This document shows positions 3,157 through 32,024 of a DNA stretch of 64,000 nt, in pieces. The notes beneath the pieces are model-generated. The model was given only the letters and a program-made list of their open reading frames with translations, did not search any database and was not told the origin of the DNA. This DNA comes from an uncultured Clostridia bacterium (GTDB lineage: Bacteria > Bacillota > Clostridia > Christensenellales > UBA3700), in contig CAMOIC010000002.1 in NCBI GenBank assembly GCA_946615965.1, positions 860 to 64,859 of the forward strand, written 5' to 3'. A program made the position numbers and the translations under genes. How positions within the stretch are numbered: the stretch's first letter is position 1; each line of letters begins with the position of its first letter.

Positions 3157-3194
3157 ATACTTATATTACTATTATATATAAATAAAAGTCAAAA

Positions 3195-3213
3195 AGAATG
3201 CACTATGCACTCT
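3195..3213 (-). terminator. Possible intrinsic terminator at the end of the nrdR-lipoprotein transcript
   Basis: Minus strand AGAGUGCA-UAG-UGCAUUCU forms 8 bp including one G.U, followed by UUUUUG. The hairpin overlaps the stop codon of the lipoprotein gene. Confidence 0.4.
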
Positions 3214-4231
3214 TTCTAACTCTTACAATTGGCAAAAATCCTTTGTATGTTTCTGTATCCCTAAAATCTTCAGATACCAGCGCTGTTGATGAGATATTTC
3301 CTTGTGTTGTTACAAAATAAACAGAGGCAGCATGTTCATTTCCATATGGGGATCTTAACCACCATTCACCATACCTTCTCTCTACTTTGTCTTTTGTTCT
3401 AATTGCAAATAATACACCTTTAGCAATTGCATAATCTGAAACTTCAGTTAATCTTTTATTTGTTGCTATATCTCCACTATCTACAAAGCCATATGTTGAT
3501 CTTGTAGCTTCGTTAACACTTAGTGAATAAATCTTATCTTCTGTATTTTTTTGAACAGATGTAAATGCATTATTATTGTTGTATTTTGTTTTATTATCTA
3601 CAGTTGTTACAACAATATCCTTTACTTGATTTGTATCAAAGGCTTTTTTATAGAAAGTATTAGCAAATTTTCTTAATGTTGAATATTCATAAGAATTAGC
3701 ATATACCCATTTATCTCCGCCGTTATATTTAACGCCTTCATCATCTTTATAGAAATATCTTTCTGTAGAATCTCCTGCAATATTTGCAATGTTTTGGAAA
3801 TTAGTAATATCTAAAATCTTATTTGACATACAAACAAATGCATTGTCTTCTTTTGAATAGATGATATTCCATATAATATCTTCAACAACAAATGCGTATT
3901 CTTGACCTGCAATAACAGAACTACCATTTGAGAATGTAGCATCCTCCACACTAGGTGTTGCTGTAATTATTGCATATGTTTTTCCATTATATTTGTAATA
4001 ACCTGTTGATTCATCATATTCTCCAGTTTTGATATCACTAAGTTCTACATTCTTAGCGATTGTTTGTGGATATGAACCAAAAGATATTTGTTTTGAAGTA
4101 ACAAAAGTATAAGATAAAGAATCTTTCTCTTCTTGTTTTGTATTATCATCTTTCTTACATGCAAACAAACATGTTGAACAAATAATAGATAAAATTATTA
4201 CAACTGAAAATATTTTTATAAACTTTTTCAT
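3203..4231 (-). CDS. Putative lipoprotein, DUF6273-like
   Basis: Signal peptide plus lipobox: MKKFIKIFSVVIILSIICSTCLFA-CKKDD. Shows FGSYPQT and C-terminal YGEWWLRSP motifs that I recall from a family of gut-Firmicute extracellular proteins. The start overlaps the nrdR stop. Confidence 0.55.
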   Translation of the reverse strand: MKKFIKIFSVVIILSIICSTCLFACKKDDNTKQEEKDSLSYTFVTSKQISFGSYPQTIAKNVELSDIKTGEYDESTGYYKYNGKTYAIITATPSVEDATFSNGSSVIAGQEYAFVVEDIIWNIIYSKEDNAFVCMSNKILDITNFQNIANIAGDSTERYFYKDDEGVKYNGGDKWVYANSYEYSTLRKFANTFYKKAFDTNQVKDIVVTTVDNKTKYNNNNAFTSVQKNTEDKIYSLSVNEATRSTYGFVDSGDIATNKRLTEVSDYAIAKGVLFAIRTKDKVERRYGEWWLRSPYGNEHAASVYFVTTQGNISSTALVSEDFRDTETYKGFLPIVRVRKSA

Positions 4232-4689
4232 TATTTCTTCTCTTTTACTAAATCTTTGATTTCAGATAGCCAGCTGTTAATATCTTTAAATTCTCTATAT
4301 ACAGCAGCAAATCTAATATAAGCTACATCATCTAATTTCTTTAAGCCTTCCATAGCATATTCACCAATTTGAGATGATGTTACTTCTTGTTCTAAAGAAT
4401 TAGCAATTTTCTTTTCTATATCATCAACAAGTTTATCTATCTTTTCCATTGGAACAGGACGCTTAGCGCAAGCAGATAAAATACCTTGCTTTAATTTGTT
4501 TCTTGAGAATGGTTGTCTATCTCCATTCTTTTTAATTACAAGGATTGGAGCAATTTCAATAGTTTCATAAGTTGTAAAACGTCTGCCGCATTGCATGCAT
4601 TCACGTCTTCTTCTTATTGATGTTCCATCTTCATTTAATCTACTGTCTATAACTTTACTTTCTAGACATCCACAAAAGCTACATTTCAT
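4231..4689 (-). CDS. nrdR: Transcriptional repressor NrdR
   Basis: MKCSFCGCLESKVIDSRLNEDGTSIRRRRECMQCGRRFTTYE zinc ribbon followed by an ATP-cone. 152 aa. Confidence 0.92.
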   Translation of the reverse strand: MKCSFCGCLESKVIDSRLNEDGTSIRRRRECMQCGRRFTTYETIEIAPILVIKKNGDRQPFSRNKLKQGILSACAKRPVPMEKIDKLVDDIEKKIANSLEQEVTSSQIGEYAMEGLKKLDDVAYIRFAAVYREFKDINSWLSEIKDLVKEKK

Positions 4690-4692
4690 ATA

Positions 4693-6882
4693 TTAACTCC
4701 ATAACCAGAATTTCTTCTTTTTCTTATCGACTTGTTTACTAGTTGTTGTTTGCTTTGGTTTATTAACAGGGTTTGGTGCTTCTACTTTAGCTGCCTTTGT
4801 AGGTGTTGCAGTAGTACTTACGCTTCCTCCCTCATATTGAACCAATCTATCATAATACTCATCAAATAAATTTAAGTTTGGAATAGATATTCTATATTTC
4901 TTTGGAATAGCTTTATATCTATTCTCTAGTTTTGTATATAGTTCCCTACTTGGAACTTTTTCCCTAGGCAATTTAGAGAAATAATTGTTCAAAACATTAG
5001 CATCATTCTTATACTTTTTGTCATAACCATTAGTAAGAGTTTCAGTAAAACCTTTAACATATTTCTTATATTGGTCATCCAAATTCGTATACATCTTTTC
5101 AGCACGAATTAATTGTTCTCTTGTAGGAACTTCTGCTTCTTCAATCTCAGTTAGAACATTCTGAACTCTTGTTATTTCAGTCATCTTCATTTTCTTAGCA
5201 GCATCACCTACAACCTTTCCAATATCGCCTGTTAATTCTTGTTCATCATCAGAAAGGTTCTTATAATCTTCTTGAATTTGAATAATATCATCATAATTTG
5301 GATATTCTTTATTATTCACATAATTCAATCTTGTATTAAAGTCAGAAATCTTATTTTCTCTAATCTTCTTTTTAGCATTTAATATAATTTCTTTTAAGTC
5401 TTCAACATATTTTCTAGAAGCAGGTCCTAGTTTCTCATATAATTGGTGAATTTCTTCAATATCCTCTTCTGTTGGTCTTGGATTAATTCTAAGGTTTTGT
5501 AATGCGGTATTAACTTTTTCTGCACTTAATCTTAAATAATCATCCCTTTCTTTAACTAATCCATCAACGAAGTCCATTTTGCCACTTTGTTTAGCAAATT
5601 TAGATAACACTTTAAAGTTAATCGATTCTTTGAAATTATCATGCATAATAAGCTCTTTTGCACTTTGAGCTTGGAAATCTACAAGCAATTTATAGTACCA
5701 AATTAAGTAGTTCTCAGCATCAATAAGTTCGGCTTTTTTAATTAACTTTCCAGCTTCTTCAAAGTCACCTAAATCTTCAATAGTAACTTTGATGAGTTTT
5801 AATACAGAAACAAGTGCTGGATCCATATGTTCAACTTGCATTCTTCTTGTATCATCTAATGCTTTAGATACTTCTATTCTTTGTTGACCATAAATAGCTT
5901 CCATTAATTTTCTAATGTTATTTCTATTCTCATCAATTTCTTCTTGTTGTTTAGCATCCATATTAATAGGATGAATGATATTATTTAAAGATTCTTCAAT
6001 ATCCTTCATTAATGAGATACCATATTTCAAACCTTGCATATGAGATAACTCAATTGGTAAATCATCTGGAGTAAATCCATCAGTAAAAATAGGAATAATA
6101 CAAGCCTTATTACTACCTGGCTTTGAATCATTTAATTGTAAGAATCTCTTCCATTCGTTTTGTAACCAATGGCTTTCTAGATATTCTTTATGAGAACAAA
6201 TTAATAGCATTACTTTAGCTGTATATAAACCATAATAAATATTTGGTTCATATTCTCTAACTCTAATACCTTTTAGAGACTTTTCACTAAAGAATACTCT
6301 ATATTTTGAAGCAAGCTCAGAGTAGATTTCACTAGCTAAGTCATAATCTGTTGAGAATATGTCTGAATTTAATTCTGTCTTCTTAAAGCAGATAAATACA
6401 TCATATGGTTTTGTCGATTCAATAATCTTAGCTGCTTTTTCACGAGCATCTTCAATAATATTTAATCTATCTTGATAATCTAACAATTTCTCTGGAGATG
6501 TTTTCTTCAGATAATTCATAAATGTTAGATATTGATCAGTCTGTGTTATAGGATTTTCTTTTACTTTAAAGAATGATGGGAATAAATTGCCATTATTATC
6601 TACTTCAAGCATTACTTGTTGATCGCAAAGTAATAATCCCCAATAAGCAGCTGTTAAATCTTCTTCAGGATATTTAGCAATAATTGATTCGTACATAGAT
6701 TTAGCCTTAGAAAAGTCTGCAAATTGTCTTTGAGAATTTGCAATTCTTAAATCAATAAACATCTGGCTATCTGCTTGTCTTTTAGTATATGTGTTACCGC
6801 AAGATTCACAGATGTATAAATCACCCTCTCTTCTACAGTGGGTGCTTAAACATACCGGACATTGAAAGGCTTCTAATTTCAT
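4693..6882 (-). CDS. Zn-ribbon / helical / TIR-domain protein with four 58-aa repeats and a polybasic-aromatic C-terminal tail
   Basis: N-terminal CPVC...CESC ribbon. TIR-like core at about aa 159-290 (YDVFICFKKTE...VMLLICSHKEYLESHWLQNEWKRF). Repeats at about aa 457-680. Ends KKKKKFWLWS. RBS AAGGAG upstream. Confidence 0.75.
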   Translation of the reverse strand: MKLEAFQCPVCLSTHCRREGDLYICESCGNTYTKRQADSQMFIDLRIANSQRQFADFSKAKSMYESIIAKYPEEDLTAAYWGLLLCDQQVMLEVDNNGNLFPSFFKVKENPITQTDQYLTFMNYLKKTSPEKLLDYQDRLNIIEDAREKAAKIIESTKPYDVFICFKKTELNSDIFSTDYDLASEIYSELASKYRVFFSEKSLKGIRVREYEPNIYYGLYTAKVMLLICSHKEYLESHWLQNEWKRFLQLNDSKPGSNKACIIPIFTDGFTPDDLPIELSHMQGLKYGISLMKDIEESLNNIIHPINMDAKQQEEIDENRNNIRKLMEAIYGQQRIEVSKALDDTRRMQVEHMDPALVSVLKLIKVTIEDLGDFEEAGKLIKKAELIDAENYLIWYYKLLVDFQAQSAKELIMHDNFKESINFKVLSKFAKQSGKMDFVDGLVKERDDYLRLSAEKVNTALQNLRINPRPTEEDIEEIHQLYEKLGPASRKYVEDLKEIILNAKKKIRENKISDFNTRLNYVNNKEYPNYDDIIQIQEDYKNLSDDEQELTGDIGKVVGDAAKKMKMTEITRVQNVLTEIEEAEVPTREQLIRAEKMYTNLDDQYKKYVKGFTETLTNGYDKKYKNDANVLNNYFSKLPREKVPSRELYTKLENRYKAIPKKYRISIPNLNLFDEYYDRLVQYEGGSVSTTATPTKAAKVEAPNPVNKPKQTTTSKQVDKKKKKFWLWS

Positions 6883-6891
6883 ATAGAATCT

Positions 6892-8328
6892 CTACTCCTT
6901 ACATTTAAACTCTTGCATTGGTTTTTTCTTGAATTCTATATCCATTAAACCAAGTTGAGTTTTAATTATTTTTCTCATTTCTACTGCAGGCTGTAAGCAA
7001 TATTTCTTAAATAATTCCTTATCTACCTTATCTACATTATCCCAGCATGGGAATAATAATTTAACGAATGCAGTTGTTATTCTCTTTACCGCTTTTGTAT
7101 CTCTTGTATCTGCATCATTTGGCACAACTACAAGTTCATCAACAATTGCTTTTTCTATTACATCTTCTCTAAGAGCATGCATTATTTCTGAGAAATATTC
7201 AGTATTCAATGCCCATCCATTTACTTTCATATTCTCATTCATTCTAGGTACATCCCATCCTTTAATAAATCCGTGGAATCTATCTATTAATGCAGAATCT
7301 TCAAATAACGATGGCAACTCTTCTAGCATGTTAACATTTGTGTCCATCTTTTCTTGTCTTATATTTCCAAGAACGATTACTCCGGCTTTTCCTGCACCTG
7401 ATTTTAGTCCGACATTAAACGTTCCTGATTCAAGATATCCCTTCATTGCACCACGCATTTCATCAATGTCTGGAAACTTAATTGTAGATATCTCATCAAG
7501 TGCTACGTAGTCATAATATGAAACAAGTCCTTCTTGATGCTTATTCATATCATAGAACATTTTTGCTCTTGTCATTACACCGCCAGATACAAGCCATCCT
7601 TTCTTACTAATTTGAGAAAAGATATAACTCTTTCCAGTTCCTTTAGGTGCTAGTTCCATAAGGTTCAATCTTTCTTCAACAAATGGAAGCAATCTTGTAA
7701 GCATTGTTAACTTTTCAAGTTCTGTTTTAAATCCAGCTGCATTGTAATCAATAGCACCTAAGATTACATCTATCCATTCATCAATAGTAAATTGCTCTCT
7801 TGCCTTCTTAAAGAATTCTAGATCTATCTTATATGGTCTAAAATCTTTAAACCCAACAAGAACAATCTTTCCTTCTTGTTTCTTACCTTTAGTTATATTT
7901 TGATATTCTAAATCTAGAATTCCCCAAAACTCGCCATCAGATACAAGGAGTTCTTTTTTATATTTTGTCCAAACACTTTGTGGTATATGTGTTTGTTGGT
8001 ATGTTATCCCAAAATCTGGAAGAGCGAATGTTACTTCAGATGTCTTAATATCTATATTTACTGAAAGCTTAGCTAAAAACCTTACTTTTTCGCCAGATAT
8101 TAATTTATCTAATATGGCATTCCACTCATCTTTACGAGGCATTACGTCTTTAATTTTTTCTAAAACAAAATTAACGTTAACATTTCCATCGGCATCTGCA
8201 TACTTTTTAATAAACCAGTCTCTTATAAAAGCTGGTAAATTAAGAGATGAAAATACACCCTGTAGTGATGACTTTTTAACTATCATCCCATCAAAGCTTT
8301 GTTTTAGCTTTAATTCCACATCGCTCAT
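6892..8328 (-). CDS. BrxL-like AAA+ protein (BREX Lon-like family N-terminal and ATPase regions, no Lon protease domain)
   Basis: 478 aa. Walker A LAPKGTGKSY, Walker B-like YVALDEIS. The blocks FTIDEWIDVILGAI, SALIDRFHGFIKGWDVP and the N-terminal FDGMIVKKSSL...LPAFIRDWF are collinear with BrxL as I remember it. The protein ends where the BrxL protease domain would begin. Confidence 0.65.
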   Translation of the reverse strand: MSDVELKLKQSFDGMIVKKSSLQGVFSSLNLPAFIRDWFIKKYADADGNVNVNFVLEKIKDVMPRKDEWNAILDKLISGEKVRFLAKLSVNIDIKTSEVTFALPDFGITYQQTHIPQSVWTKYKKELLVSDGEFWGILDLEYQNITKGKKQEGKIVLVGFKDFRPYKIDLEFFKKAREQFTIDEWIDVILGAIDYNAAGFKTELEKLTMLTRLLPFVEERLNLMELAPKGTGKSYIFSQISKKGWLVSGGVMTRAKMFYDMNKHQEGLVSYYDYVALDEISTIKFPDIDEMRGAMKGYLESGTFNVGLKSGAGKAGVIVLGNIRQEKMDTNVNMLEELPSLFEDSALIDRFHGFIKGWDVPRMNENMKVNGWALNTEYFSEIMHALREDVIEKAIVDELVVVPNDADTRDTKAVKRITTAFVKLLFPCWDNVDKVDKELFKKYCLQPAVEMRKIIKTQLGLMDIEFKKKPMQEFKCKE

Positions 8329-8340
8329 GTAGATTCTCCT

Positions 8341-9786
8341 TTATAGGCCTAAGTCGTCTTCTTCTAAGCCTTTATTAAATTTAATCTTTTTTCTAGCGAT
8401 TTCATTTTGTGATGAAATAATAACTTCGTACTCTCCTGGTTTTTCAATATTCAATGGTTCAGATACCCATGAATTGAATTTCTTAGAACATAGATAATTT
8501 GCCCCATTTACTTGCAAATATACTTTTTCTAGTTCCTTAGATACAGAAAACTCAACACTTGGCTTCTCCCCTGCCTTCATATTAATAACATCTTCAGCAA
8601 ATGTTACTTCTACAGTTTCATCTTCTTTTTCTTTCTTTACAGTTCCGCCAGTTCTTCCAGCATATTCTTCAAAAGCTTTTAAATCTTTTTGTTTTACTGT
8701 AGGTGGAACTTTAGATAATGCTTTAACAAAATCTTTCATAGTAATATCTGTTAAAACATCAGTCTTAATATAATTGTTTAGAGGATCTTCTTTTGCTCTA
8801 TCACAAACTTCTGCAATATCTGCACCAGAATAACCTTCTGTTACTTTAACAAGCTTCTTAATATCTACATCTTTTCCAAGAGGAACATTATTTAATTGTT
8901 TATTAAACATATATTCTCTTGCTGGAGCATCAGGCAAAGATACATAAATCTTTTCACTAAATCTTCCAGAACGAACAGCTGCACTATCTACATCCCAAGG
9001 TCTATTAGTAGCACCAAGTAATAATAGGTTATCTGTCTTTGATGCAAATCCATCGATTTGTTGTAAGAATTCATTTACACGCTTATCATTGTGCATATCT
9101 TGGCCACGTTGTCCAAATAAAGAATCCATTTCATCAATAAAAATGATAGCAAGCTTATCTTTTTTAGCAGCTTCAAATAATGAAGAAATATTCTTTTCAC
9201 TCTCACCTACATATTTAGATAAGATATCTGATCCTTTAATTGCATAGAATGTAGCACCAACTTCGCCAGCAATGGCTTTTGCTATTAAAGTCTTACCTGT
9301 TCCTGGAGGTCCATATAACAAGACACCACCACCCATTTTCTTACCATACTTGGCATATTTTTCTGGGTACTTAATAGGATTAATCATTCTAGTTAAGATT
9401 GTTTTCTTAACTTCTTCTAGTCCAGCAACATCAGAGAATTTGATATCTGGGATAGCAGAACCTTGCCAAATCTTGCCATTATCTTCATCTTGTTCTTGTT
9501 GTTGACCACCTTGAGAATTATCTCCAGTTCCTGGAACACGTCTAACAGCTGGACGTTTTCTATCTCCACATGCTTCTGCGTTTTCTTGATACATTTTAGC
9601 TTTTTTAATAAGCGATGCCTTTAATTGTTGTGAAGAATATTTACTTGTTTCTAATGCCTTTTGTGCAGCAAGCATATAATACTTCTTAGCAGCAGTATAG
9701 TTGCCAGCAGCCTGACATCTAATTGCATTATTGTAGTAAGTATCCATCATTTCTCTGTAGAAAGACACATCCTTAACTTCAGCCAT
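8341..9786 (-). CDS. Vps4-like AAA+ ATPase (MIT-like N-domain, linker, AAA core, extra C-terminal beta-rich domain)
   Basis: MIT-like three-helix N-terminus YYNNAIRCQAAGNYTAAKKYYMLAAQKALETSKY...KKAKMYQENAEAC. Walker A GPPGTGKT, pore loop KYVGESEK, Walker B IIFIDEMD, ATNRPWDVDSAAVRSGRF. About 100 aa of unrelated C-terminal sequence. Confidence 0.8.
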   Translation of the reverse strand: MAEVKDVSFYREMMDTYYNNAIRCQAAGNYTAAKKYYMLAAQKALETSKYSSQQLKASLIKKAKMYQENAEACGDRKRPAVRRVPGTGDNSQGGQQQEQDEDNGKIWQGSAIPDIKFSDVAGLEEVKKTILTRMINPIKYPEKYAKYGKKMGGGVLLYGPPGTGKTLIAKAIAGEVGATFYAIKGSDILSKYVGESEKNISSLFEAAKKDKLAIIFIDEMDSLFGQRGQDMHNDKRVNEFLQQIDGFASKTDNLLLLGATNRPWDVDSAAVRSGRFSEKIYVSLPDAPAREYMFNKQLNNVPLGKDVDIKKLVKVTEGYSGADIAEVCDRAKEDPLNNYIKTDVLTDITMKDFVKALSKVPPTVKQKDLKAFEEYAGRTGGTVKKEKEDETVEVTFAEDVINMKAGEKPSVEFSVSKELEKVYLQVNGANYLCSKKFNSWVSEPLNIEKPGEYEVIISSQNEIARKKIKFNKGLEEDDLGL

Positions 9787-9796
9787 TTATTACCCC

Positions 9797-10390
9797 TTAG
9801 TTGTTATTTGTTTCTTTAATCTTTTTGCTAATTTCATCTAATTGCTTATCAATATCATCATCACTAACTTCATCCATAGCTAGTTCTTGATCGATAAGAC
9901 TATTAATTTCGTCATCAGAAATGGCATTTGTATCACCTGTATGAGCATTGAACTCTCCTTCTGACATATCTAGATAAATATCCATTTGTTCAGTTTGAGT
10001 TTGAACACCTTCCATAGCGGCTTCAAATTGTTGTTGAACTTTAGCAAAGTCCTTAGAATTTGTTAACTTTGTCATTTCCTTAGATAAAAGACTTAAACCA
10101 CCTAAGAATTCATGAGTCATAACTGTCATATCTTTCATTTGAGAAGTGATTTCAAAGTTCAATAACATCTCTTGAGCTCTTTTTTGTTGAGCCATAGTCA
10201 TTTTTAAACCAGTAACAGCTAAATTATATTGGTTCATTAAACCAAGCTTTTTAGCACGCTTTGCTGCTGAGATATATACTTTCTTTTGATCTTCTAGTTT
10301 AGAAATTTGTTTATTCATTTGGTTAATAGTCTTTTTAACCAACATTTTCTTTTCTATTTCTTTCTCTTGTTTAGTTTTAAATAATCCCAT
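9797..10390 (-). CDS. ESCRT-III superfamily protein, Vps2/Vps24/CHMP3-like
   Basis: 197 aa. MGLFKTKQEKEIEKK N-terminus, then a basic helical hairpin (AAKRAKKLGLMNQYNLAVTGLKMTMAQQKRAQEM), then KDFAKVQQQFEAAMEGVQTQTEQMDIYLD, and an acidic C-terminus ending in an amphipathic DDDIDKQLDEISKKIKE helix. Confidence 0.65.
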   Translation of the reverse strand: MGLFKTKQEKEIEKKMLVKKTINQMNKQISKLEDQKKVYISAAKRAKKLGLMNQYNLAVTGLKMTMAQQKRAQEMLLNFEITSQMKDMTVMTHEFLGGLSLLSKEMTKLTNSKDFAKVQQQFEAAMEGVQTQTEQMDIYLDMSEGEFNAHTGDTNAISDDEINSLIDQELAMDEVSDDDIDKQLDEISKKIKETNNN

Positions 10391-11007
10391 TATTCGTCAG
10401 TCTCCTCAAATTCTTTTTCTATTAATCCTGCTTCACCGCTTTCTTCAACGGCAGCAATTGTTTCTTCTTGTTCTGCAGTATCTTGCTCTTCAAACATAGC
10501 AAGTAATTGATCATCATTCTTACCTGCACCGTAAATTGTTTCATTTAAATCATATTGCATTGCAACTTCATTAAATGTATCGTCAGATGTTGTTAATATA
10601 TCTTCTTCCTTAACTCTTAAATTCAATGCCTTATTTAAGTACTTAGCAAGTGCCTTTTGGTCACCTAATAACTTATTAATTGGAATTTTACCTGTATTTG
10701 CATAGAATTCCTTATCTTCCATAGCATCCTTTAACTTATTCATTAAGTTGATGTTATAGACAAGATACATACCTCTTTGTGCATCACGTTGTTTTTGAGC
10801 TTTTAGGTAATTAATCTTCTTTGCATATAAAAGTCTTATCTCTTGAGATTTCTCAGCTTTACCCTTCTTTAAAAGTTCTTCAATTTCAGCTGTCTTTTCT
10901 ACAATGCCATCTTCGATAGCTTCTTGTTCTTTCTCAAGTTTGATAATAGAATTTACAACTTCTTCTCTTTTTAATTTCTTAAATCTAAAATATGATAAGA
11001 ATCCCAC
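10390..11007 (-). CDS. ESCRT-III superfamily protein, Snf7/CHMP4-like
   Basis: 205 aa. MGFLSYFRFKK N-terminus, coiled-coil hairpin LLKKGKAEKSQEIRLLYAKKINYLKAQKQRDAQ, and a strongly acidic tail (EEQDTAEQEETIAAVEESGE...EFEETDE). The stop overlaps the start of the next gene. Confidence 0.55.
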   Translation of the reverse strand: MGFLSYFRFKKLKREEVVNSIIKLEKEQEAIEDGIVEKTAEIEELLKKGKAEKSQEIRLLYAKKINYLKAQKQRDAQRGMYLVYNINLMNKLKDAMEDKEFYANTGKIPINKLLGDQKALAKYLNKALNLRVKEEDILTTSDDTFNEVAMQYDLNETIYGAGKNDDQLLAMFEEQDTAEQEETIAAVEESGEAGLIEKEFEETDE

Positions 11008-11018
11008 AAATAGCCTCC

Positions 11019-11372
11019 TTATTCGTTCGCGCGTCTTTCAACAACTAATTGATTTAAATCTCTTAAATTGTGATTAAGCGCTAAATCACTTCTTAATTTT
11101 CCTCTAGACAAGATTAGCTTTAGAGAATCCAATTTATCTGATATCTCTTTATCTATTCTCTCTACTTCTTCTGAAACAACAGGATTTGAATATTTAATTT
11201 CGATATATAAATCCTTTAATTGTTGTTCAATAGAATGATTACTCTTTGCTAAAACAATTAGCATATTAATCTTTTCTGCATTTTTATCTAAAGTTTTCTT
11301 AACTTGCATAACTTTAGCAACATGTGCAGGAGAGATATCTATAATTTCTTTATCTTTAACAAATAATCCCAT
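11019..11372 (-). CDS. Small all-helical protein sharing the MGLF N-terminus (function unknown)
   Basis: 117 aa, MGLFVKDKEII..., heptad-like helical sequence. Start overlaps the stop of the SPFH gene (TAATG). No family recognised. Confidence 0.45.
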   Translation of the reverse strand: MGLFVKDKEIIDISPAHVAKVMQVKKTLDKNAEKINMLIVLAKSNHSIEQQLKDLYIEIKYSNPVVSEEVERIDKEISDKLDSLKLILSRGKLRSDLALNHNLRDLNQLVVERRANE

Positions 11373-12136
11373 TATTCTACCCTCGCTCCACAGTTATTAC
11401 AGAATTTACTTCCTGCGACAATTATATGGCCACATCTTGGACAAACATCTTGTTTTGTTCTTGCAGCTTTTGACTTATCCATATATCTATCTGAGATATT
11501 GACATTAGAAATTAAAAATGAAGAAATCTCTAATCCATATTCTCTATACAAAGCTTTATCTAAAGATTGTCTAATCTCATAAGACATAGCCATTTTATCT
11601 TCTGCGATTCTATCTAATGGCACTTCATTAACTGCCACATATTCAAGAATGCATGGTTCAATATATGATAAGATTTTACCCTTTAGTCTTTCTTTTAAAT
11701 CTTCTAAAGAAAATCTCTTATTAACACCAACAAGTTCTAAATAGAATTGTCTTGGATTCTTAACACGAAGTTCAATTTCTCCATTAGCACCCATTTTTGC
11801 AGGATTATCTGTGATTGGATCATGAATATCAAACAATGCAGGTGTTCCCCAAAGCACTTTAACTTTGGCTGTTTTTGATATATAGAAAAACTCAATTCTT
11901 GATGGGTCTTGCTTCTCTATTGAGAATGGAGAATTCTTATCTTGTAATTTATAAACGCCAGGTTTTATAGTTTCTAAAGCAATGCCATCTTTAAGAACAA
12001 TAGCAACATGAGTTTCGTCTATAATCACTTTTGAGTCCGAATTAATAGAAGAGATACTCTTTCTTATGAATAAATCATCATTAGAGATCTCACTTTTGTT
12101 TAAAAACACAACTTTTGAGTCTGTAGTTGTAGCCAA
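11372..12136 (-). CDS. SPFH/Band-7-like protein with C-terminal Zn-ribbon (YdjI / COG4260-like)
   Basis: 254 aa with a TTG start 7 nt after AGGAGG. Blocks THVAIVLKDGIA...PGVYKL, KVLWGTPALFDIHDP and GLEISSFLISNVNISD parallel B. subtilis YdjI as I recall it. C-terminal CPRCGH...CNNCG ribbon. Confidence 0.7.
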   Translation of the reverse strand: MATTTDSKVVFLNKSEISNDDLFIRKSISSINSDSKVIIDETHVAIVLKDGIALETIKPGVYKLQDKNSPFSIEKQDPSRIEFFYISKTAKVKVLWGTPALFDIHDPITDNPAKMGANGEIELRVKNPRQFYLELVGVNKRFSLEDLKERLKGKILSYIEPCILEYVAVNEVPLDRIAEDKMAMSYEIRQSLDKALYREYGLEISSFLISNVNISDRYMDKSKAARTKQDVCPRCGHIIVAGSKFCNNCGARVE

Positions 12137-12193
12137 TTTTCCTCCTACATCTTGTGGTTTAAAAACAAATCTACCACAATATGTAACAATAAT

Positions 12194-12222
12194 ATTTTAT
12201 ATTAAATATTTAAGTCAGTCAA
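12194..12222 (-). promoter_or_regulatory. Sigma-A-type promoter of the seven-gene operon
   Basis: Minus strand TTGACT (12222-12217), 17 nt, TAAAAT (12199-12194), about 50 nt upstream of the TTG start. The -35 lies inside the perfect palindrome GTCAATATTGAC (12218-12229). Confidence 0.5.
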
Positions 12223-12285
12223 TATTGACCTATTCTAAGGGATTTATATCAAATTTAACTAAACAATTTCTTAAAAAATTTCATT

Positions 12286-12321
12286 AAAAAAGGGCGAGAA
12301 ACTACTAAGAGTCGCTCACCC
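12286..12321 (-). terminator. Intrinsic terminator downstream of ftsZ
   Basis: Minus strand GGGUGAG-(16 nt)-CUCGCCC followed by UUUUUU, about 40 nt after the ftsZ stop. Confidence 0.6.
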
Positions 12322-12360
12322 TCTTTTGGGTATATATGTTGTTGTAAACTTTTTAGTCTA

Positions 12361-13686
12361 TTAGATGTTTCTGTTCATCATTCTTGAAAGCCAAGGAGCA
12401 GTCTTCTTACCTTGTGGGTTTGTTGTTGGCTGTGGTTGGCTTGGTTGAACAGTTTGTTGTACAGGTTGAACTGGTTGTTGTGGTTGTTGTTGGTTTTGTC
12501 CAAAAACTGAATCATAACTTACAGGTCTTGCTGTAAATCCAGGATATGCTTGATAACCACCTGGGATTGGTTGTCTATATTGAGGTTGTTGAGGTTGTTG
12601 CTCATAATCTTTATCTGCAGCTACCTCTGCACCTTCTGTACCAATAATGTGTTGAGATACATGGTAAGTACTTGCAAATGTAGAATTATCCATAATTGCA
12701 TGATCACCATATTGGTTCTTGTAGTTCTTGAATGGGCTTCTTTGTTGATTCTCTTCAAATCCAGTAGCAACAATAAGAACTTTAACCTTATCTCCGAAGC
12801 TTTCTTCAAATCCTGTACCAAAGATAATGTTTGCATCAGCAGATACACATCTTCTTACAAGTTGCGAAGCATCATTAGCTTCTTTTAATCCTAATGTGTT
12901 ACCACCAACGATATATAGTAATACGCCAGTAGCACCAGAAATATTTGTATCTAGTAAGTTGCTCATAATAGCAGTTTCAACAGCCTTTCTTGTTTTATCT
13001 TTACCTTCAGCTTCTCCAATTGCTAAGTGAGCCATTCCTTTTCCTTTCATAATTGTCTTTACATCAGCAAAGTCAAGATTCAACTTTGTAGATGTTGCAA
13101 TAAGGTCTGTTAAACCTCTAATTGCATCTCTAAGTACAGTATCAGCATGCTTAAATGCGCCCATAAAGCTTACATTGTCACCTAAAACCTTTAATAAGTT
13201 GTTATTAGGAATAACAATCATAGAATCTACGTTTTCTTTTAATTGAGCGATACCTGATTCTGCGTTCTTCATTCTTACAGCACCTTCAAATTCAAAAGGT
13301 TTTGTAACAACGGCAACTGTTAAAATGTTCTTTTCCTTAGCCATTTGAGCAATAACCGGAGCTGCACCAGTTCCAGTACCACCACCCATTCCGGCTGTGA
13401 TAAATAACATATCAACATCGTTTAAATAGTCTCTAATTTCATCTCTTGACTCTTCTGCTGCGCCTTTACCAACGTCTGGTCTAGCACCTGCACCAAGTCC
13501 CTTTGTTGTTGTTTTACCAATAGCAATCTTATGAGGTGCTTTAGAAACCTCTAATGCTTGGCCATCAGTATTAACTGCAACGAATTCTGCGCTGTCAACT
13601 CCAGCTTCGATCATTGAATCAACGGCGTTACAACCGCCACCGCCGACACCCATTACTAGGATTTTTGCTCTTTTGTTCTCTGACAT
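12361..13686 (-). CDS. ftsZ: Cell division protein FtsZ
   Basis: ILVMGVGGGGCNAV, GGGTGTGAAPV and a Q/P-rich linker, with C-terminal peptide APWLSRMMNRN. I prefer the ATG at 13686 behind AGGAGGG over the track start at 13737, which would overlap ftsA. Confidence 0.95.
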   Translation of the reverse strand: MSENKRAKILVMGVGGGGCNAVDSMIEAGVDSAEFVAVNTDGQALEVSKAPHKIAIGKTTTKGLGAGARPDVGKGAAEESRDEIRDYLNDVDMLFITAGMGGGTGTGAAPVIAQMAKEKNILTVAVVTKPFEFEGAVRMKNAESGIAQLKENVDSMIVIPNNNLLKVLGDNVSFMGAFKHADTVLRDAIRGLTDLIATSTKLNLDFADVKTIMKGKGMAHLAIGEAEGKDKTRKAVETAIMSNLLDTNISGATGVLLYIVGGNTLGLKEANDASQLVRRCVSADANIIFGTGFEESFGDKVKVLIVATGFEENQQRSPFKNYKNQYGDHAIMDNSTFASTYHVSQHIIGTEGAEVAADKDYEQQPQQPQYRQPIPGGYQAYPGFTARPVSYDSVFGQNQQQPQQPVQPVQQTVQPSQPQPTTNPQGKKTAPWLSRMMNRNI

Positions 13687-30095: not shown

Positions 30096-31970
30096 TTATC
30101 TTTTCAAGTGTTCTTGATATCGATCTAAATCTGAACACAGCAATTTAATGATATAATTTTTAGTTTTTGATTCTGTTTTAATACCCTCTAATTTCTTTTT
30201 TAAATCTATTAAATACATCTGCTCGGAACCAAAAAAATCATAAGAATTACCTATACCGTATATCCTTAACAATAAACTCCTAAACATATTTAATTCATCA
30301 TTGTCTGCATCTTTTATATAATTACAAACTTTATCTATCTCATATTTTGAAATAAACTCCTTTCTTTCAAAAGCAGTTGAAATAATCTTTTCAATTTCAG
30401 ATTCTTGCATATTTTTCAAAGAAATAAGCATTTTCCCTTCTGATAAATCATATAGTTTTTCATTATGTGCAGTGATATTATTTTTAATTCTATCAATACT
30501 TTCTAGGAAAGGTTTTTCATTTTGAACTACACTATAATCTGGCCATAATAATTCGATTTCTTTATTGCTTGCCTTTATGTTTTTTATAAGAATATCTTCA
30601 AATTCTCGAATTCCAATAATTTCTTCAAATTTATATGCTTTCACATAGGTATAATAGTAGTTAATTGCTAATAGAGAATACTCTAATTCCATCTTATTCT
30701 TAGAGACTGCATCAATCATGCATTTTATATTAGTAGATATTTCTTCATCACTTAATTCAACCCAGGAACCTCTTAAAACCAATAAATACATAGGAATCTC
30801 TTCTTGAGGCATAAAATAAAATGACTCATCAAGTTCCTCAATTTCTTTTTGTATTTTATCACTTATTTTTTGATAATTAACAAACTCCTTAATACTTGGT
30901 AATGTAGTCACATTAAAATCAATATTATTTACAACAGTTTTAGGATTTCGATATTTTATAGTATCTAATAAAACATTTATAATTAACGACTCCTTAATTT
31001 TAACGTCATTATTAATCTTTGAGAAATCTACATATTCATACAGTTTATTCAAGTTATCAAGAAAGGTTATAAGGGTTCTAAGATTATTACATGAGCAATT
31101 ATAAATACATTTTATAATATTCTCTTTATTATTTATTACATCCTCATATATATTTTCATATCTAGACATTTTTGCTAACTTGTCAAAAAAAACATTCACA
31201 TCAAATCTAAATACTACGGTGTTGTTAATAGTTTTTTCCTTAATAATGTCATAATCTCTAATGTCTCTTATTGACTCCATCATACTATTTAACGAATCTT
31301 TTGAATCAGGGTTTTTACTTTGAGTTGTTTTCAGCATAATAGACGACACCAGCATTATATCCTTATTATTATCATGGTCTATCGAATCTATTAATTCTTT
31401 TTCATCACCAATAACAACAACCCTATAACGAGGTTCTTCTGTAAACTCATTCAAATAACCAAACAATTCTTTGTAATCAATGCGACATCTCTCTATGTCA
31501 TCAAAAAACATAACAACTTTTTTAGTAGAATTAATAATTAAATCCGCAACCCAAGTAAACTCTATATTATCAATTCCGCTTATATCTTTCCCTTTAAATG
31601 CTGCAACAATTTTTCCAACAGATTTACCAAAATTAGCAATTTTAGAATCTGAAAACCAAGTAACAAACGAACAAACCTTTTTTGAAATACTATTCTTTAT
31701 ATCATCTATTTTTGAGATTCCATTTAAAGAAACATATATATATAATATATCCTTCTCGTTCTGAGCATTCTTATTCTTAATGTAGTTATTTATATAGTAT
31801 GATTTACCAGATCCCCAGGGACCATTTATAAACAGTGCTCCATATGGATTATCATTTTCTAAATAATAGTCTAGCGCTTTCGTTAAAGTATTATGATTCT
31901 TTAGTATCTCCGAATCCACCCTTCCAGAAAGCACATCATTATCAATATTGCTGTTTTTTTTATAAGCCAT
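30096..31970 (-). CDS. KAP-family P-loop NTPase (soluble form)
   Basis: Walker A INGPWGSGKSYY and Walker B/KAP signature VVMFFDDIERC. Long helical C-terminal region. I prefer the start at 31970 (GGAGG RBS) over 31988. Confidence 0.7.
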   Translation of the reverse strand: MAYKKNSNIDNDVLSGRVDSEILKNHNTLTKALDYYLENDNPYGALFINGPWGSGKSYYINNYIKNKNAQNEKDILYIYVSLNGISKIDDIKNSISKKVCSFVTWFSDSKIANFGKSVGKIVAAFKGKDISGIDNIEFTWVADLIINSTKKVVMFFDDIERCRIDYKELFGYLNEFTEEPRYRVVVIGDEKELIDSIDHDNNKDIMLVSSIMLKTTQSKNPDSKDSLNSMMESIRDIRDYDIIKEKTINNTVVFRFDVNVFFDKLAKMSRYENIYEDVINNKENIIKCIYNCSCNNLRTLITFLDNLNKLYEYVDFSKINNDVKIKESLIINVLLDTIKYRNPKTVVNNIDFNVTTLPSIKEFVNYQKISDKIQKEIEELDESFYFMPQEEIPMYLLVLRGSWVELSDEEISTNIKCMIDAVSKNKMELEYSLLAINYYYTYVKAYKFEEIIGIREFEDILIKNIKASNKEIELLWPDYSVVQNEKPFLESIDRIKNNITAHNEKLYDLSEGKMLISLKNMQESEIEKIISTAFERKEFISKYEIDKVCNYIKDADNDELNMFRSLLLRIYGIGNSYDFFGSEQMYLIDLKKKLEGIKTESKTKNYIIKLLCSDLDRYQEHLKR

Positions 31971-31987
31971 AATATATAACCTCCACA

Positions 31988-32024
31988 TAAAAAATGCTGT
32001 CTTATACTTAGATAAAACAGCATT
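31988..32024 (-). terminator. Intrinsic terminator after tRNA-Gln, directly upstream of the KAP gene
   Basis: Minus strand AAUGCUGU-(16 nt)-ACAGCAUU followed by UUUUUAU. It ends about 18 nt before the KAP start codon. Confidence 0.55.

Follow-up and report, generated by a model that had tools for sequence, protein, structure and literature searches.

An ESCRT-III/Vps4-like operon with BrxL and TIR partners in uncultured gut Clostridia

Seven minus-strand genes, here called g1 to g7, lie together in a 64,000-nt stretch of DNA (hereafter the window) from a metagenome-assembled genome (MAG) of an uncultured Clostridia bacterium (GenBank assembly GCA_946615965.1, contig CAMOIC010000002.1). We read them as encoding a bacterial ESCRT-III/Vps4 machine of archaeal type, whose accessory proteins, a BrxL ATPase (g6) and a TIR-domain protein (g7), would make this variant a DNA- or infection-responsive, defence-type elaboration of a membrane-maintenance core. 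This reading as a whole appears rather likely to us, and its parts differ in strength: the identity of the core as ESCRT-III/Vps4 of archaeal type is held with high confidence and the physical integration of g6 and g7 is considered probable, whereas a defensive role of these accessories is close to an even chance, if anything a little below it. An initial annotation of the stretch had described an ESCRT-III/Vps4-like module joined to SPFH, BrxL-like and TIR proteins, and this description was supported by profile evidence for g4 and g5 and by the co-occurrence of the genes in many genomes; g4 and g5 fall in ESCRT families, the genes are found together widely, and no catalogued system with this architecture was found.

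The ESCRT-III/Vps4-like core

Direct library scans recognised part of the operon. Pfam profiles matched g1 (Band_7_1), g5 (AAA and Vps4_C), g6 (BrxL) and g7 (TIR) and gave nothing for g2, g3 and g4, the assignment of which required profile and structure work beyond such scans. Judging from profile-profile comparisons, g4 (9797-10390; 197 aa) is a true protein of the ESCRT-III/Snf7 superfamily. Its family profile aligned with an ESCRT-III protein of Thermococcus in hhalign with 97.3% probability (E = 1.9e-11), and the profile of the wider g4 family did so with 98.8% (E = 7.9e-17). By tblastn, a protein 31% identical to g4 (E = 1e-8) was located on a plasmid of Thermococcus peptonophilus (NZ_CP014751.1; 49 kb; locus L093), and this relative itself matched Pfam Snf7 (E = 4e-4). 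Positions 1655-9558 of L093 encode three ESCRT-III-like paralogues (the g4 relative and two further proteins of ~200 aa and MG[IL]L type), a Ser/Thr kinase, an ATPase with AAA and Vps4_C domains and a PP2C phosphatase; this archaeal replicon was the sole match to g4 among 72,556 plasmids. An exhaustive profile search collected a wider g4 family of 490 clusters at 50% identity (E <= 1e-3), two members of which reached the Pfam Snf7 cutoff of 27.3 bits (28.9 bits for P0360 and 27.3 bits for P0374), and three more matched the same model at E ~1e-3. Searches of PDB sequences by phmmer and hmmsearch with g3, g4 and the g4 profile returned only one ESCRT-III alignment, collinear but non-significant, to CHMP2A (E = 2.1), together with spurious matches to S100 and FlgM, and the g4 family profile recovered no ESCRT-III protein there; plain searches of hidden Markov models (HMMs) against sequences are too insensitive for g3 and g4.

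The structure prediction for g4 pointed the same way, though less clearly. The AlphaFold2 model comprised helices at residues 7-48, 52-109, 113-149, 159-173 and 177-196, which fit the order expected of ESCRT-III, a long alpha1-alpha2/3 hairpin and then alpha4, alpha5 and a C-terminal helix, but its mean pLDDT (predicted local distance difference test) was just 64.8. The structural search suggested in the initial annotation was partly successful: with Foldseek against the PDB the top nine matches of the g4 model were all ESCRT-III proteins (CdvB, CHMP2A, Asgard ESCRT-IIIB, CdvB2 and CHMP1B; probability 0.47-1.0), and Vipp1/PspA first appeared at rank 47, but the best E value was 0.025 and the matches of g3 were non-significant. 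The N-terminus is of MGLFK type in 41 of 81 members and a hydrophobic plus basic variant was found in 68 of them. Towards the C-terminus of the family members, a variable, acidic linker leads into a conserved helix (D-x-I-D-K-E-L-E-x-L-R-K-K-L), a tail that we take to resemble the MIM1-type MIT-interacting motif.

Domain content and motifs of g5 (8341-9786; 481 aa), the gene directly following g4 in 68/68 loci, indicate a protein that is Vps4-like in architecture and not a CdvC orthologue. From the N- to the C-terminus it comprises an MIT-like region, one classical AAA cassette, a Vps4_C helix and a C-terminal DUF7862 domain. Pfam matches were obtained for AAA (6.8e-42), AAA_lid_3 (6.1e-11) and Vps4_C (33.7 bits; cutoff 21.3), and the Walker A (GPPGTGKT), Walker B (IIFIDEMD), pore loop (SKYVGESEK) and second region of homology (NRPWDVDSA) motifs are conserved. 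The protein was 32% identical to the Thermococcus Vps4-like ATPase (E = 9e-50) over residues 26-381, the N-terminal domain included. For this MIT-like three-helix domain (residues 1-78; 9553-9786), the best PDB match of the family profile was a solved MIT domain, 2mpk (E = 2.8e-4), and the MIT domains of VPS4A and Sulfolobus Vps4 were also on its short list of matches; Pfam MIT was the family most often matched by individual g5 orthologues (6/21, best 2.7e-6). We call g5 Vps4-like and not a CdvC orthologue because it failed the CdvC equivalog threshold, being collinear with the NCBIfam CdvC model NF041006 over residues 10-376 at 208 bits against a cutoff of 650 bits. PADLOC gave only generic IetA/TRIP13-like AAA matches for g5. 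Some g5 orthologues are larger (680-729 aa) and carry tandem AAA cassettes (L082 10743-12911, L089 10575-12668 and L037 2364-4553); they keep the MIT-like N-terminus and the Vps4_C helix, with an AAA_lid_6 in the D1 cassette of L082 and L089, and are a Cdc48-like, double-ring version of the Vps4-like ATPase.

The product of g3 (10390-11007; 205 aa; GTG start) is probably a divergent subunit with the ESCRT-III fold. Its AlphaFold2 model contains a confident helical hairpin (residues 14-51 and 55-98; pLDDT 80-91). In the Foldseek search with g3, CdvB2 filaments made up eight of the top 13 Foldseek matches and CHMP3 reached a TMt of 0.63, with generic helical bundles interleaved and E values of 0.1-1.5. 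No similarity to narrow g4 profiles was obtained by hhalign, whereas the broad g4 superfamily aligned with g3 over its full length and collinearly (P = 0.0074), and the second paralogue of the Thermococcus ESCRT locus aligned over 56 columns (E = 7.8e-4). The N-termini of the g3 family are aromatic and basic (MWPFK, MWWPF, MGFLS), and the C-terminal helix (DDQLLAMFE) is acidic and conserved. No match to g3 was found on plasmids. The more specific labels first given to these proteins, Snf7/CHMP4-like for g3 and Vps2/Vps24/CHMP3-like for g4, could not be kept, since the evidence assigns neither protein to a subfamily and g3 is no more than probably an ESCRT-III protein. That g2, g3 and g4 might be recent paralogues was also considered and rejected, as hhalign with narrow family profiles shows no similarity between them.

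The two genes preceding g3 complete the core. The first, g1 (11372-12136; 254 aa; TTG start), encodes a soluble SPFH protein (PF13421 Band_7_1, 1.6e-19; 70.8 bits, cutoff 24) with a C-terminal Zn_Ribbon_1 (3e-7) and no transmembrane segment (maximum hydropathy 1.03); it stands first in 68/68 complete loci. Its architecture is the same as that of Bacillus subtilis YdjI, likened here by the published description (PMC8581546), and no solved structure was found for g1. Between g1 and g3 in 68/68 loci, g2 (11019-11372) encodes a helical protein of 117 aa which matched no entry in any library scanned and had no hhalign similarity to g3, g4 or the Thermococcus paralogues. It is the fastest-evolving component, with 43-45% identity where FtsZ has 60-62%.

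Relatives of g4 were found in at least 115 species-representative genomes; the 80 that were retrieved were all from uncultured gut Clostridia (labelled Christensenellales, Ca. Coproplasma, Ca. Caccovivens and similar), and a cluster look-up for cultured carriers returned MAG records only. Among these up to 80 species-level genomes, the order g1-g2-g3-g4-g5 was kept in all 68 loci that had the five genes, and the arrangement is therefore not due to chance. The initial annotation had asked for the conservation of the seven-gene order: it holds for g1-g5, and the window composition with g6 and g7 occurred in 3 of the 52 loci that were flanked by 3 kb or more on each side. Core-only loci with a short g5 (~380 aa) amounted to 33 of these 52, six others added a g7-type gene, six added a g7-type gene plus a trypsin-like protease, and the rest had other combinations. 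Thus, g1-g5 form an autonomous five-gene core that is most often found alone. The flanks of core-only loci are shared (a bPH_2 protein, MscL, SDR and MetK upstream and two ABC exporters downstream), which indicates a stable, vertically inherited housekeeping position. Genes for MscL and bPH_2 precede the core-only operon in ~34 loci (L034 5103-5894 and 6653-7186), a neighbourhood that may reflect a membrane-stress theme or plain synteny. No relatives of g4 were found in IMG/VR or GenBank phages or on bacterial plasmids, and no defence-island context was seen, the flanks being housekeeping genes.

Beyond these loci, members of the wider g4 family showed other partnerships. Their Snf7-like domain is fused to RuvB_N/RuvB_C, with or without a NERD nuclease, in P0283, P0285, P0340 and P0374, and to FtsK_alpha/FtsK_SpoIIIE (FtsK/HerA-type) ATPases in P0288 and P0290. 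A trypsin-like protease gene follows the fusion genes of L090 (8001-10403) and L092 (245-2089). Behind one such fusion gene, the protease gene is succeeded by genes for a Band_7_1 protein, for an ESCRT-III-like protein (Snf7, E = 0.0035), for an AAA ATPase and for a DUF6273 protein. These fusions and their trypsin, Band_7_1 and AAA neighbours repeat a theme in which ESCRT-III is joined to a DNA motor and a protease. Distant g4 relatives also lie beside AAA genes in L095 (577-3623; genes of 202 aa and 191 aa, an AAA gene of 404 aa and a g4-like gene, in this order) and in L096 (7001-10038; a 429-aa g4-like fusion, a 185-aa gene and an AAA gene, adjoining der and plsY); the pairing of ESCRT-III-like and AAA genes therefore extends beyond loci of the Christensenellales type.

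The BrxL and TIR accessories

The sixth gene, g6 (6892-8328; 478 aa), encodes a short BrxL of the Type-4 bacteriophage exclusion (BREX) type, with an N-terminal DNA-binding region, an MCM-like AAA+ domain in which Walker A and B are conserved, and neither a Lon nor an HKD domain. It scored 434 bits on the short BrxL model TIGR02688 (cutoff 329) and matched the Pfam BrxL ATPase (PF13337, 1.3e-113) and BrxL_N (PF20442, 4.3e-28) families. The search for known defence systems proposed at the outset gave a divided result: PADLOC recognised g6 as BrxL (PDLC02505, 2e-201, end to end over 482 positions), but g1-g4 and g7 were without a match and no system was called. BrxL forms an ATP-dependent, MCM-like ring encircling double-stranded DNA and is needed by BREX for phage restriction (PMC10164562). 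Within the window clade g6 was the most conserved gene of the system, with 78-79% identity vs. ~61% for FtsZ.

The closest relatives of g6 outside ESCRT operons were 55-59% identical, for example in Clostridium bowmanii, and belonged to Type-4 BREX loci with the order BrxP (PAPS reductase)-BrxC-PglZ-BrxL (locus type according to PMC12839542). The PglZ protein encoded directly upstream of the short BrxL in such loci ends in the Pfam domain DUF7862 (L097 6727-8988 and L098 6715-8988). The same domain, beta-rich and ending in the tail KGLEEDDLGL, closes g5 in the window (residues ~388-481; 8344-8625). This C-terminal extension of ~100 residues was present in g5 of 13/13 loci with g6 vs. 0/60 loci without it, is homologous across clades in at least four locus layouts, and ends in KG[LI]EE[DN]D[LF]. 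Eight of nine copies of the extension matched Pfam DUF7862 (best 4.8e-6; window copy 9.3e-4), hhalign aligned it with the PglZ C-termini of Type-4 BREX (E = 7.7e-6 and 4.3e-5), and an acidic ...DLG[IL] tail is common to both. These findings are most simply explained if brxL and the 3' end of pglZ travelled as one piece that became joined, in frame, to the vps4-like gene. We propose that DUF7862 is a BrxL-docking module and that g5 and g6 form a physical complex; no solved structure of a Type-4 PglZ was found. As far as these sequence relationships indicate, the BrxL half of the accessory layer comes from Type-4 BREX. The locus itself is not a BREX system, given that BrxP, BrxC, the PglZ catalytic domain, PglX and other BREX or Thoeris genes were not found in the window and that the PglZ part is limited to the DUF7862 of g5.

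L004 (12123-12899), L008 (12205-13143) and ~24 other loci encode a trypsin-like serine protease that carries, at its N-terminus, a CxxC...CxxC Zn-ribbon like that of g7; its gene usually lies between g5 and the BrxL-like gene and is missing in the window clade. This protease may take the place of the (inactive) Lon domain found in long BrxL.

The last of the seven genes, g7 (4693-6882; 729 aa), encodes a protein with a Zn-ribbon, tetratricopeptide repeats (TPR_6, 1.6e-4), a TIR domain (TIR_2, 1.5e-9; 38.8 bits, cutoff 28), a long helical-repeat C-terminal region and a Lys-rich, Trp-containing tail (KKKKKFWLWS). The TIR domain (residues ~158-290; 6013-6411) carries the sequence SHWLQNEW, which presumably corresponds to the SxWCxxEL motif of NADase TIRs, with E243 as their catalytic Glu. 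Across 48 homologues E243 was conserved in at least 80%, and E212, W244 and R246 in at least 95%. These 48 proteins share only their N-terminal ~290 residues, with four invariant Zn-ribbon Cys, the TPR and the TIR domain; their total lengths range from 486 to 1520 aa and their C-termini vary, ending in transmembrane tail-anchors, in Arg/Gly/Pro-rich tails or, in the window clade, in Lys-rich Trp/Phe tails. The g7 of the window is described here as a putative peripheral-membrane protein in which the candidate catalytic Glu is kept. The position of the g7-type gene differs by lineage: it may lie ahead of g1, in the g2/g3 or the g4/g5 interval, or downstream of g6. The N-terminal CxxC...CxxC Zn-ribbon is common to g7-type proteins and the trypsin-like proteases. 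No TIR partners (ThsA, CBASS or Pycsar cyclases) were found in the window.

Transcription unit and surroundings of the operon

The open reading frame list of the window confirmed the seven tightly packed minus-strand genes of the initial annotation at their coordinates, with intergenic gaps of -1, 11, -1, 10, 12 and 9 nt from g1 to g7. The promoter assigned to them, of sigma-70 type (TTGACT-17-TAAAAT; 12194-12222, minus strand), was the top-scoring match (10/12) within 4100-12500, a region in which sigma-70-like matches were not enriched (30 found vs. 41 expected), and downstream of it an AGGAGG Shine-Dalgarno sequence precedes the TTG start of g1. The terminator described between this unit and ftsZ is real: the intrinsic terminator of the ftsZ unit (12286-12327, minus strand) folds at -21 kcal/mol (z = -5.65), none of 200 shuffled sequences folded as stably, and the hairpin is followed by a U-run. 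No internal promoter or terminator signal was found between the genes g1-g7.

The end assigned to the operon had to be moved. After a gap of 3 nt, g7 is followed on the same strand by nrdR (4231-4689; NrdR Zn-ribbon and ATP-cone domains), with no terminator found between the two, and nrdR overlaps by 1 nt with a gene for a DUF6273 lipoprotein (3203-4231, minus strand; PF19789, 3.4e-16). Considering this spacing and that the first terminator-like hairpin downstream of the g1 promoter, a 20-pair stem followed by a T-rich tail, lies at 3182-3226 (minus strand, read from 3226 to 3182), position 4693 is no transcription boundary and the transcription unit probably comprises nine genes, g1-g7, nrdR and, as the last one, the DUF6273 gene. 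The latter follows nrdR in all window-type loci, and phmmer found DUF6273 in the window clade only. A gene for a 697-aa DUF6273 protein (L090 15168-17261) also lies directly after the AAA gene of the unrelated Snf7-RuvB-NERD locus; DUF6273 was rejected as a general component of the system, as the phmmer matches were confined to the window clade and this single independent co-occurrence is too little.

The operon is embedded in the division and cell wall (dcw) cluster, in the order mraZ-rsmH-...-ftsQ-ftsA-ftsZ-[operon]-nrdR. Base composition was uniform across the region, and an identical locus is present in GCA_016280745.1. The placement between ftsZ and nrdR is confined to the window clade (L001, L002, L010, L030 and L039), whereas the other ~70 loci are located elsewhere, near MscL, MetK and ABC exporters, glycoside hydrolases or transporters. 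Housekeeping genes make up the remainder of the window (RqcH/NFACT, CarB, PurL, GH2, a GyrA/ParC-like protein and ClpX). A 630-aa KAP-family P-loop NTPase (30096-31988, minus strand; Pfam KAP_NTPase, 4.2e-8), encoded ~18 kb from the operon, matched the PADLOC candidate defence family PDC-S49 (2.3e-43), and g5 gave a faint match to the same model (E = 0.0015).

Proposed function, alternatives and relation to known systems

The mechanism that we propose starts from the SPFH protein g1, which would act as a sub-membrane platform. The aromatic or basic N-termini of g3 and g4 may insert into the cytoplasmic face of the membrane, where the two proteins would co-polymerise, and their C-terminal amphipathic helices, located after the acidic linker, would recruit the MIT domain of g5. 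A g5 hexamer could then extract subunits at the expense of ATP, and the resulting turnover of the filament would lead to membrane constriction, sealing or scission. This core presumably works alone in most carrier species. Where the accessories are present, a BrxL ring tethered to g5 by DUF7862 may mark or engage DNA, and the TIR domain of g7 may consume NAD+ or make a signal, so that the window variant would tie membrane remodelling both to DNA at the membrane and to the chemistry of NAD+. We favour a role of the accessories in anti-phage or anti-plasmid conflict because of the BREX-derived BrxL and DUF7862, the TIR domain, the associations with NERD and trypsin, and the shuffling by lineage. 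A stronger version, in which the core has been converted in several lineages into a new class of immune system with ESCRT as the effector, is put forward tentatively and seems to us doubtful; in it, a DUF7862-docked BrxL clamp and membrane-anchored TIR sensors would direct ESCRT to sites of phage DNA entry or assembly, where the membrane would be sealed, pinched off or sacrificed.

Several observations count against the ESCRT-based, defence-type interpretation. Polymerisation, membrane binding, binding of the MIT domain to the tails, the g5-g6 contact and NADase activity are all predicted properties. Inheritance of the core and of the window-type operon is vertical and their neighbours are housekeeping genes, strong purifying selection acts on g6 and g7, PADLOC recognises no system and no other BREX or Thoeris genes accompany them in the window, and an integral-membrane anchor equivalent to YdjG/YdjH is not encoded. 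As regards the core, the ESCRT-III status of g3 rests on several weak signals, the AlphaFold2 models are moderate (pLDDT ~64-65) and no Foldseek match reaches E < 1e-3. Neither g2, g3 and g4 in Pfam, NCBIfam and PADLOC nor the MIT region of the window g5 alone in Pfam (E = 0.21) gave a significant match, and the ATPase core of g5 scores slightly higher on the CDC48 (234 bits) and FtsH (218 bits) models than on CdvC (208 bits).

The last group of points would fit an operon that is not ESCRT at all, with g2-g4 as generic coiled coils and g5 as a generic classical AAA protein of Cdc48, FtsH or SpoVK type with an unrelated helical N-terminus; the g4-profile HMM search of the PDB that returned no ESCRT-III, and the non-specific Foldseek matches that all-helical models draw, can be read in the same way. 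We nevertheless consider this explanation very improbable, and it is already largely refuted for g4 and g5: the hhalign alignments of the g4 family with archaeal ESCRT-III are strong, relatives of g4 pass the Pfam Snf7 threshold, g5 has Vps4_C above the cutoff, an MIT domain at the family level and a full-length alignment to an archaeal Vps4 encoded next to ESCRT-III, and the gene order, ESCRT-III followed by the ATPase, is the same in archaea. A Cdv-like division machine working with FtsZ, suggested by the placement of the operon after ftsA-ftsZ in the dcw cluster of the window and the five loci of its clade and by the fact that ESCRT-III/Vps4 drives division in Crenarchaeota (PMC7615534, PMC10017037), is improbable as well. 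Adjacency to ftsZ was seen in that one clade only, for which reason a general link to ftsZ or cell division was discarded. Moreover, a strong terminator lies between ftsZ and the operon, which is served by a promoter of its own.

More weight is given to the possibility that all of the operon, also its BrxL and TIR genes, serves housekeeping by coordinating membrane scission or repair with DNA, for instance in clearing or handling chromosomal DNA at the closing septum or in loading DNA into membrane vesicles, and is not an immune system. Such a cellular role, with DNA handled during scission or vesicle formation, is argued for by vertical inheritance, purifying selection and housekeeping surroundings: core-only loci are syntenic in housekeeping neighbourhoods, the operon has remained between ftsZ and nrdR in five loci at ~60% FtsZ identity while g6 keeps 78-79%, copies on phages or bacterial plasmids were not found, and the Snf7-like domain is fused elsewhere to translocases of the FtsK/SpoIIIE type, a family used at division septa. 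We still judge it unlikely, as the closest outside relatives of g6 are components of Type-4 BREX and the DUF7862 tether is derived from PglZ, the accessories are shuffled by lineage (position of the TIR gene, presence of trypsin and BrxL, NERD fusions) as is typical of conflict systems, and most carrier species are without g6 and g7. To our knowledge, moreover, bacterial TIR domains that retain the catalytic Glu are overwhelmingly associated with defence. The initial annotation had left the choice between one novel system and a membrane repair module with a defence cassette in its operon, and each view was upheld in part, the core being autonomous (33/52) and BrxL coming from BREX while the add-on is wired in through DUF7862. 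In its strict form, as two unrelated systems that happen to be adjacent and read through, the latter view is quite improbable. It draws on the absence of g6 and g7 from most loci, on the BREX origin of g6 and on the frequent insertion of defence genes at operon ends, but g5 gains DUF7862 exactly where g6 is present (13/13 vs. 0/60), g7-type genes are interleaved in the core of other species (between g2 and g3 or g4 and g5), g7-type and trypsin genes have their Zn-ribbon in common, and the genes at this end of the operon lie 9-12 nt apart, and neither a promoter nor a terminator signal was found inside.

Published accounts place ESCRT components in archaea "but not in bacteria", with PspA/Vipp1 as the exception (Makarova et al. 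2024, PMC10936438), and a review of 2025 stated that a Vps4-like ATPase "appears absent in bacteria" (PMC7619361). A Snf7-type ESCRT-III together with an MIT-AAA Vps4-like ATPase, conserved in at least 115 species-level bacterial genomes, contradicts both statements. Ravi et al. (2024, PMC11237479) described Vps4-like ATPases that occur sporadically in bacteria and have, in place of snf7, a gene for a TPR protein with six transmembrane segments, as well as some Snf7/PspA and AAA+ operons in other contexts, and a BREX survey of 2026 made no mention of ESCRT, Snf7, Vps4, SPFH or trypsin (PMC12839542). No prior description of a bacterial system of Snf7, Vps4 and SPFH with BrxL or TIR was found in the literature searched, the coverage of which was incomplete; PMC10936438, PMC7619361, PMC11237479 and PMC12839542 do not contain one. 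For the evolution of ESCRT, the finding raises the alternatives of a transfer from archaea to bacteria in the gut or an older origin of the partnership with Vps4, and the core would offer a simpler bacterial model for ESCRT-III/Vps4 mechanics with an SPFH partner. It also leads to the prediction that the C-terminal DUF7862 of PglZ is a BrxL-binding module in BREX itself, which bears on the mechanism of BREX. The recurrent association of Snf7-like proteins with DNA motors (BrxL, RuvB plus NERD, FtsK), trypsin-like proteases and TIR suggests an undescribed link of membrane remodelling to the sensing of DNA or infection, and, if ESCRT were indeed an immune effector, there would be a parallel with eukaryotic ESCRT membrane repair under pore-forming attack.

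Compared with known systems, the machine is, by its sequence affinities, homologous to archaeal ESCRT-III/Vps4, whereas its stable presence in a bacterial order, the SPFH and g2 partners and, above all, the wiring to a BREX-derived BrxL and a TIR protein appear to be new. The nearest counterpart is the euryarchaeal "Main-clade" ESCRT, known from Thermococcales and others, the layout of which is matched by the Thermococcus operon L093 (Makarova et al. 2024, PMC10936438): several ESCRT-III paralogues of ~200 aa with MG[IL]L/F-type N-termini are encoded with an MIT-AAA-Vps4_C ATPase, and the similarity is direct (31% identity for g4 and 32% for g5). In contrast, the host here is bacterial, Ser/Thr kinase, PP2C and winged-helix (ESCRT-II-like) partners are lacking, their place being taken by a YdjI-like SPFH-Zn-ribbon protein, g2, BrxL and TIR, and some of the ATPases have DUF7862 or another AAA cassette in addition. 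Archaeal Meth_adaptin ESCRT loci (PMC10936438), likened by published description, also combine ESCRT-III and Vps4 with an SPFH protein that has coiled-coil and Zn-ribbon domains as well, but their adaptin-appendage, GOLD and ProX proteins were not detected here. The bacterial ATPases of Ravi et al. (PMC11237479) likewise are Vps4-like AAA+ proteins with MIT, interpreted as related to archaeal Vps4; the present loci differ in keeping two genes of the ESCRT-III fold and in being conserved across an order-level clade.

The remaining systems share single elements with the operon. In B. subtilis, PspA needs YdjI, a soluble SPFH protein ending in a Zn-finger, to reach the membrane (PMC8581546, PMC11237479), and the PspA-YdjGHI (SamGHI) system thus has in common with the present one a YdjI-type SPFH/Zn-finger protein encoded with a polymer protein of the ESCRT-III superfamily; the polymer proteins here are, however, of Snf7 and not of PspA type, a Vps4-type disassembly ATPase is present and the YdjG/YdjH receptors are not. 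Crenarchaeal CdvABC similarly pairs ESCRT-III (the CdvB family gave top Foldseek matches for g3 and g4) with an MIT-AAA ATPase, CdvC, whereas here CdvA is missing, g5 remains far below the CdvC threshold (208 vs. 650 bits), the host has FtsZ and FtsA, and a link to division is unsupported outside one clade. Type-4 BREX (BrxP-BrxC-PglZ-BrxL; PMC12839542) shares with the operon the short BrxL and the gene directly upstream of it ending in DUF7862, and differs in that BrxP, BrxC and the catalytic domain of PglZ are not in the window and that DUF7862 is carried by PglZ in BREX and by the Vps4-like ATPase here.

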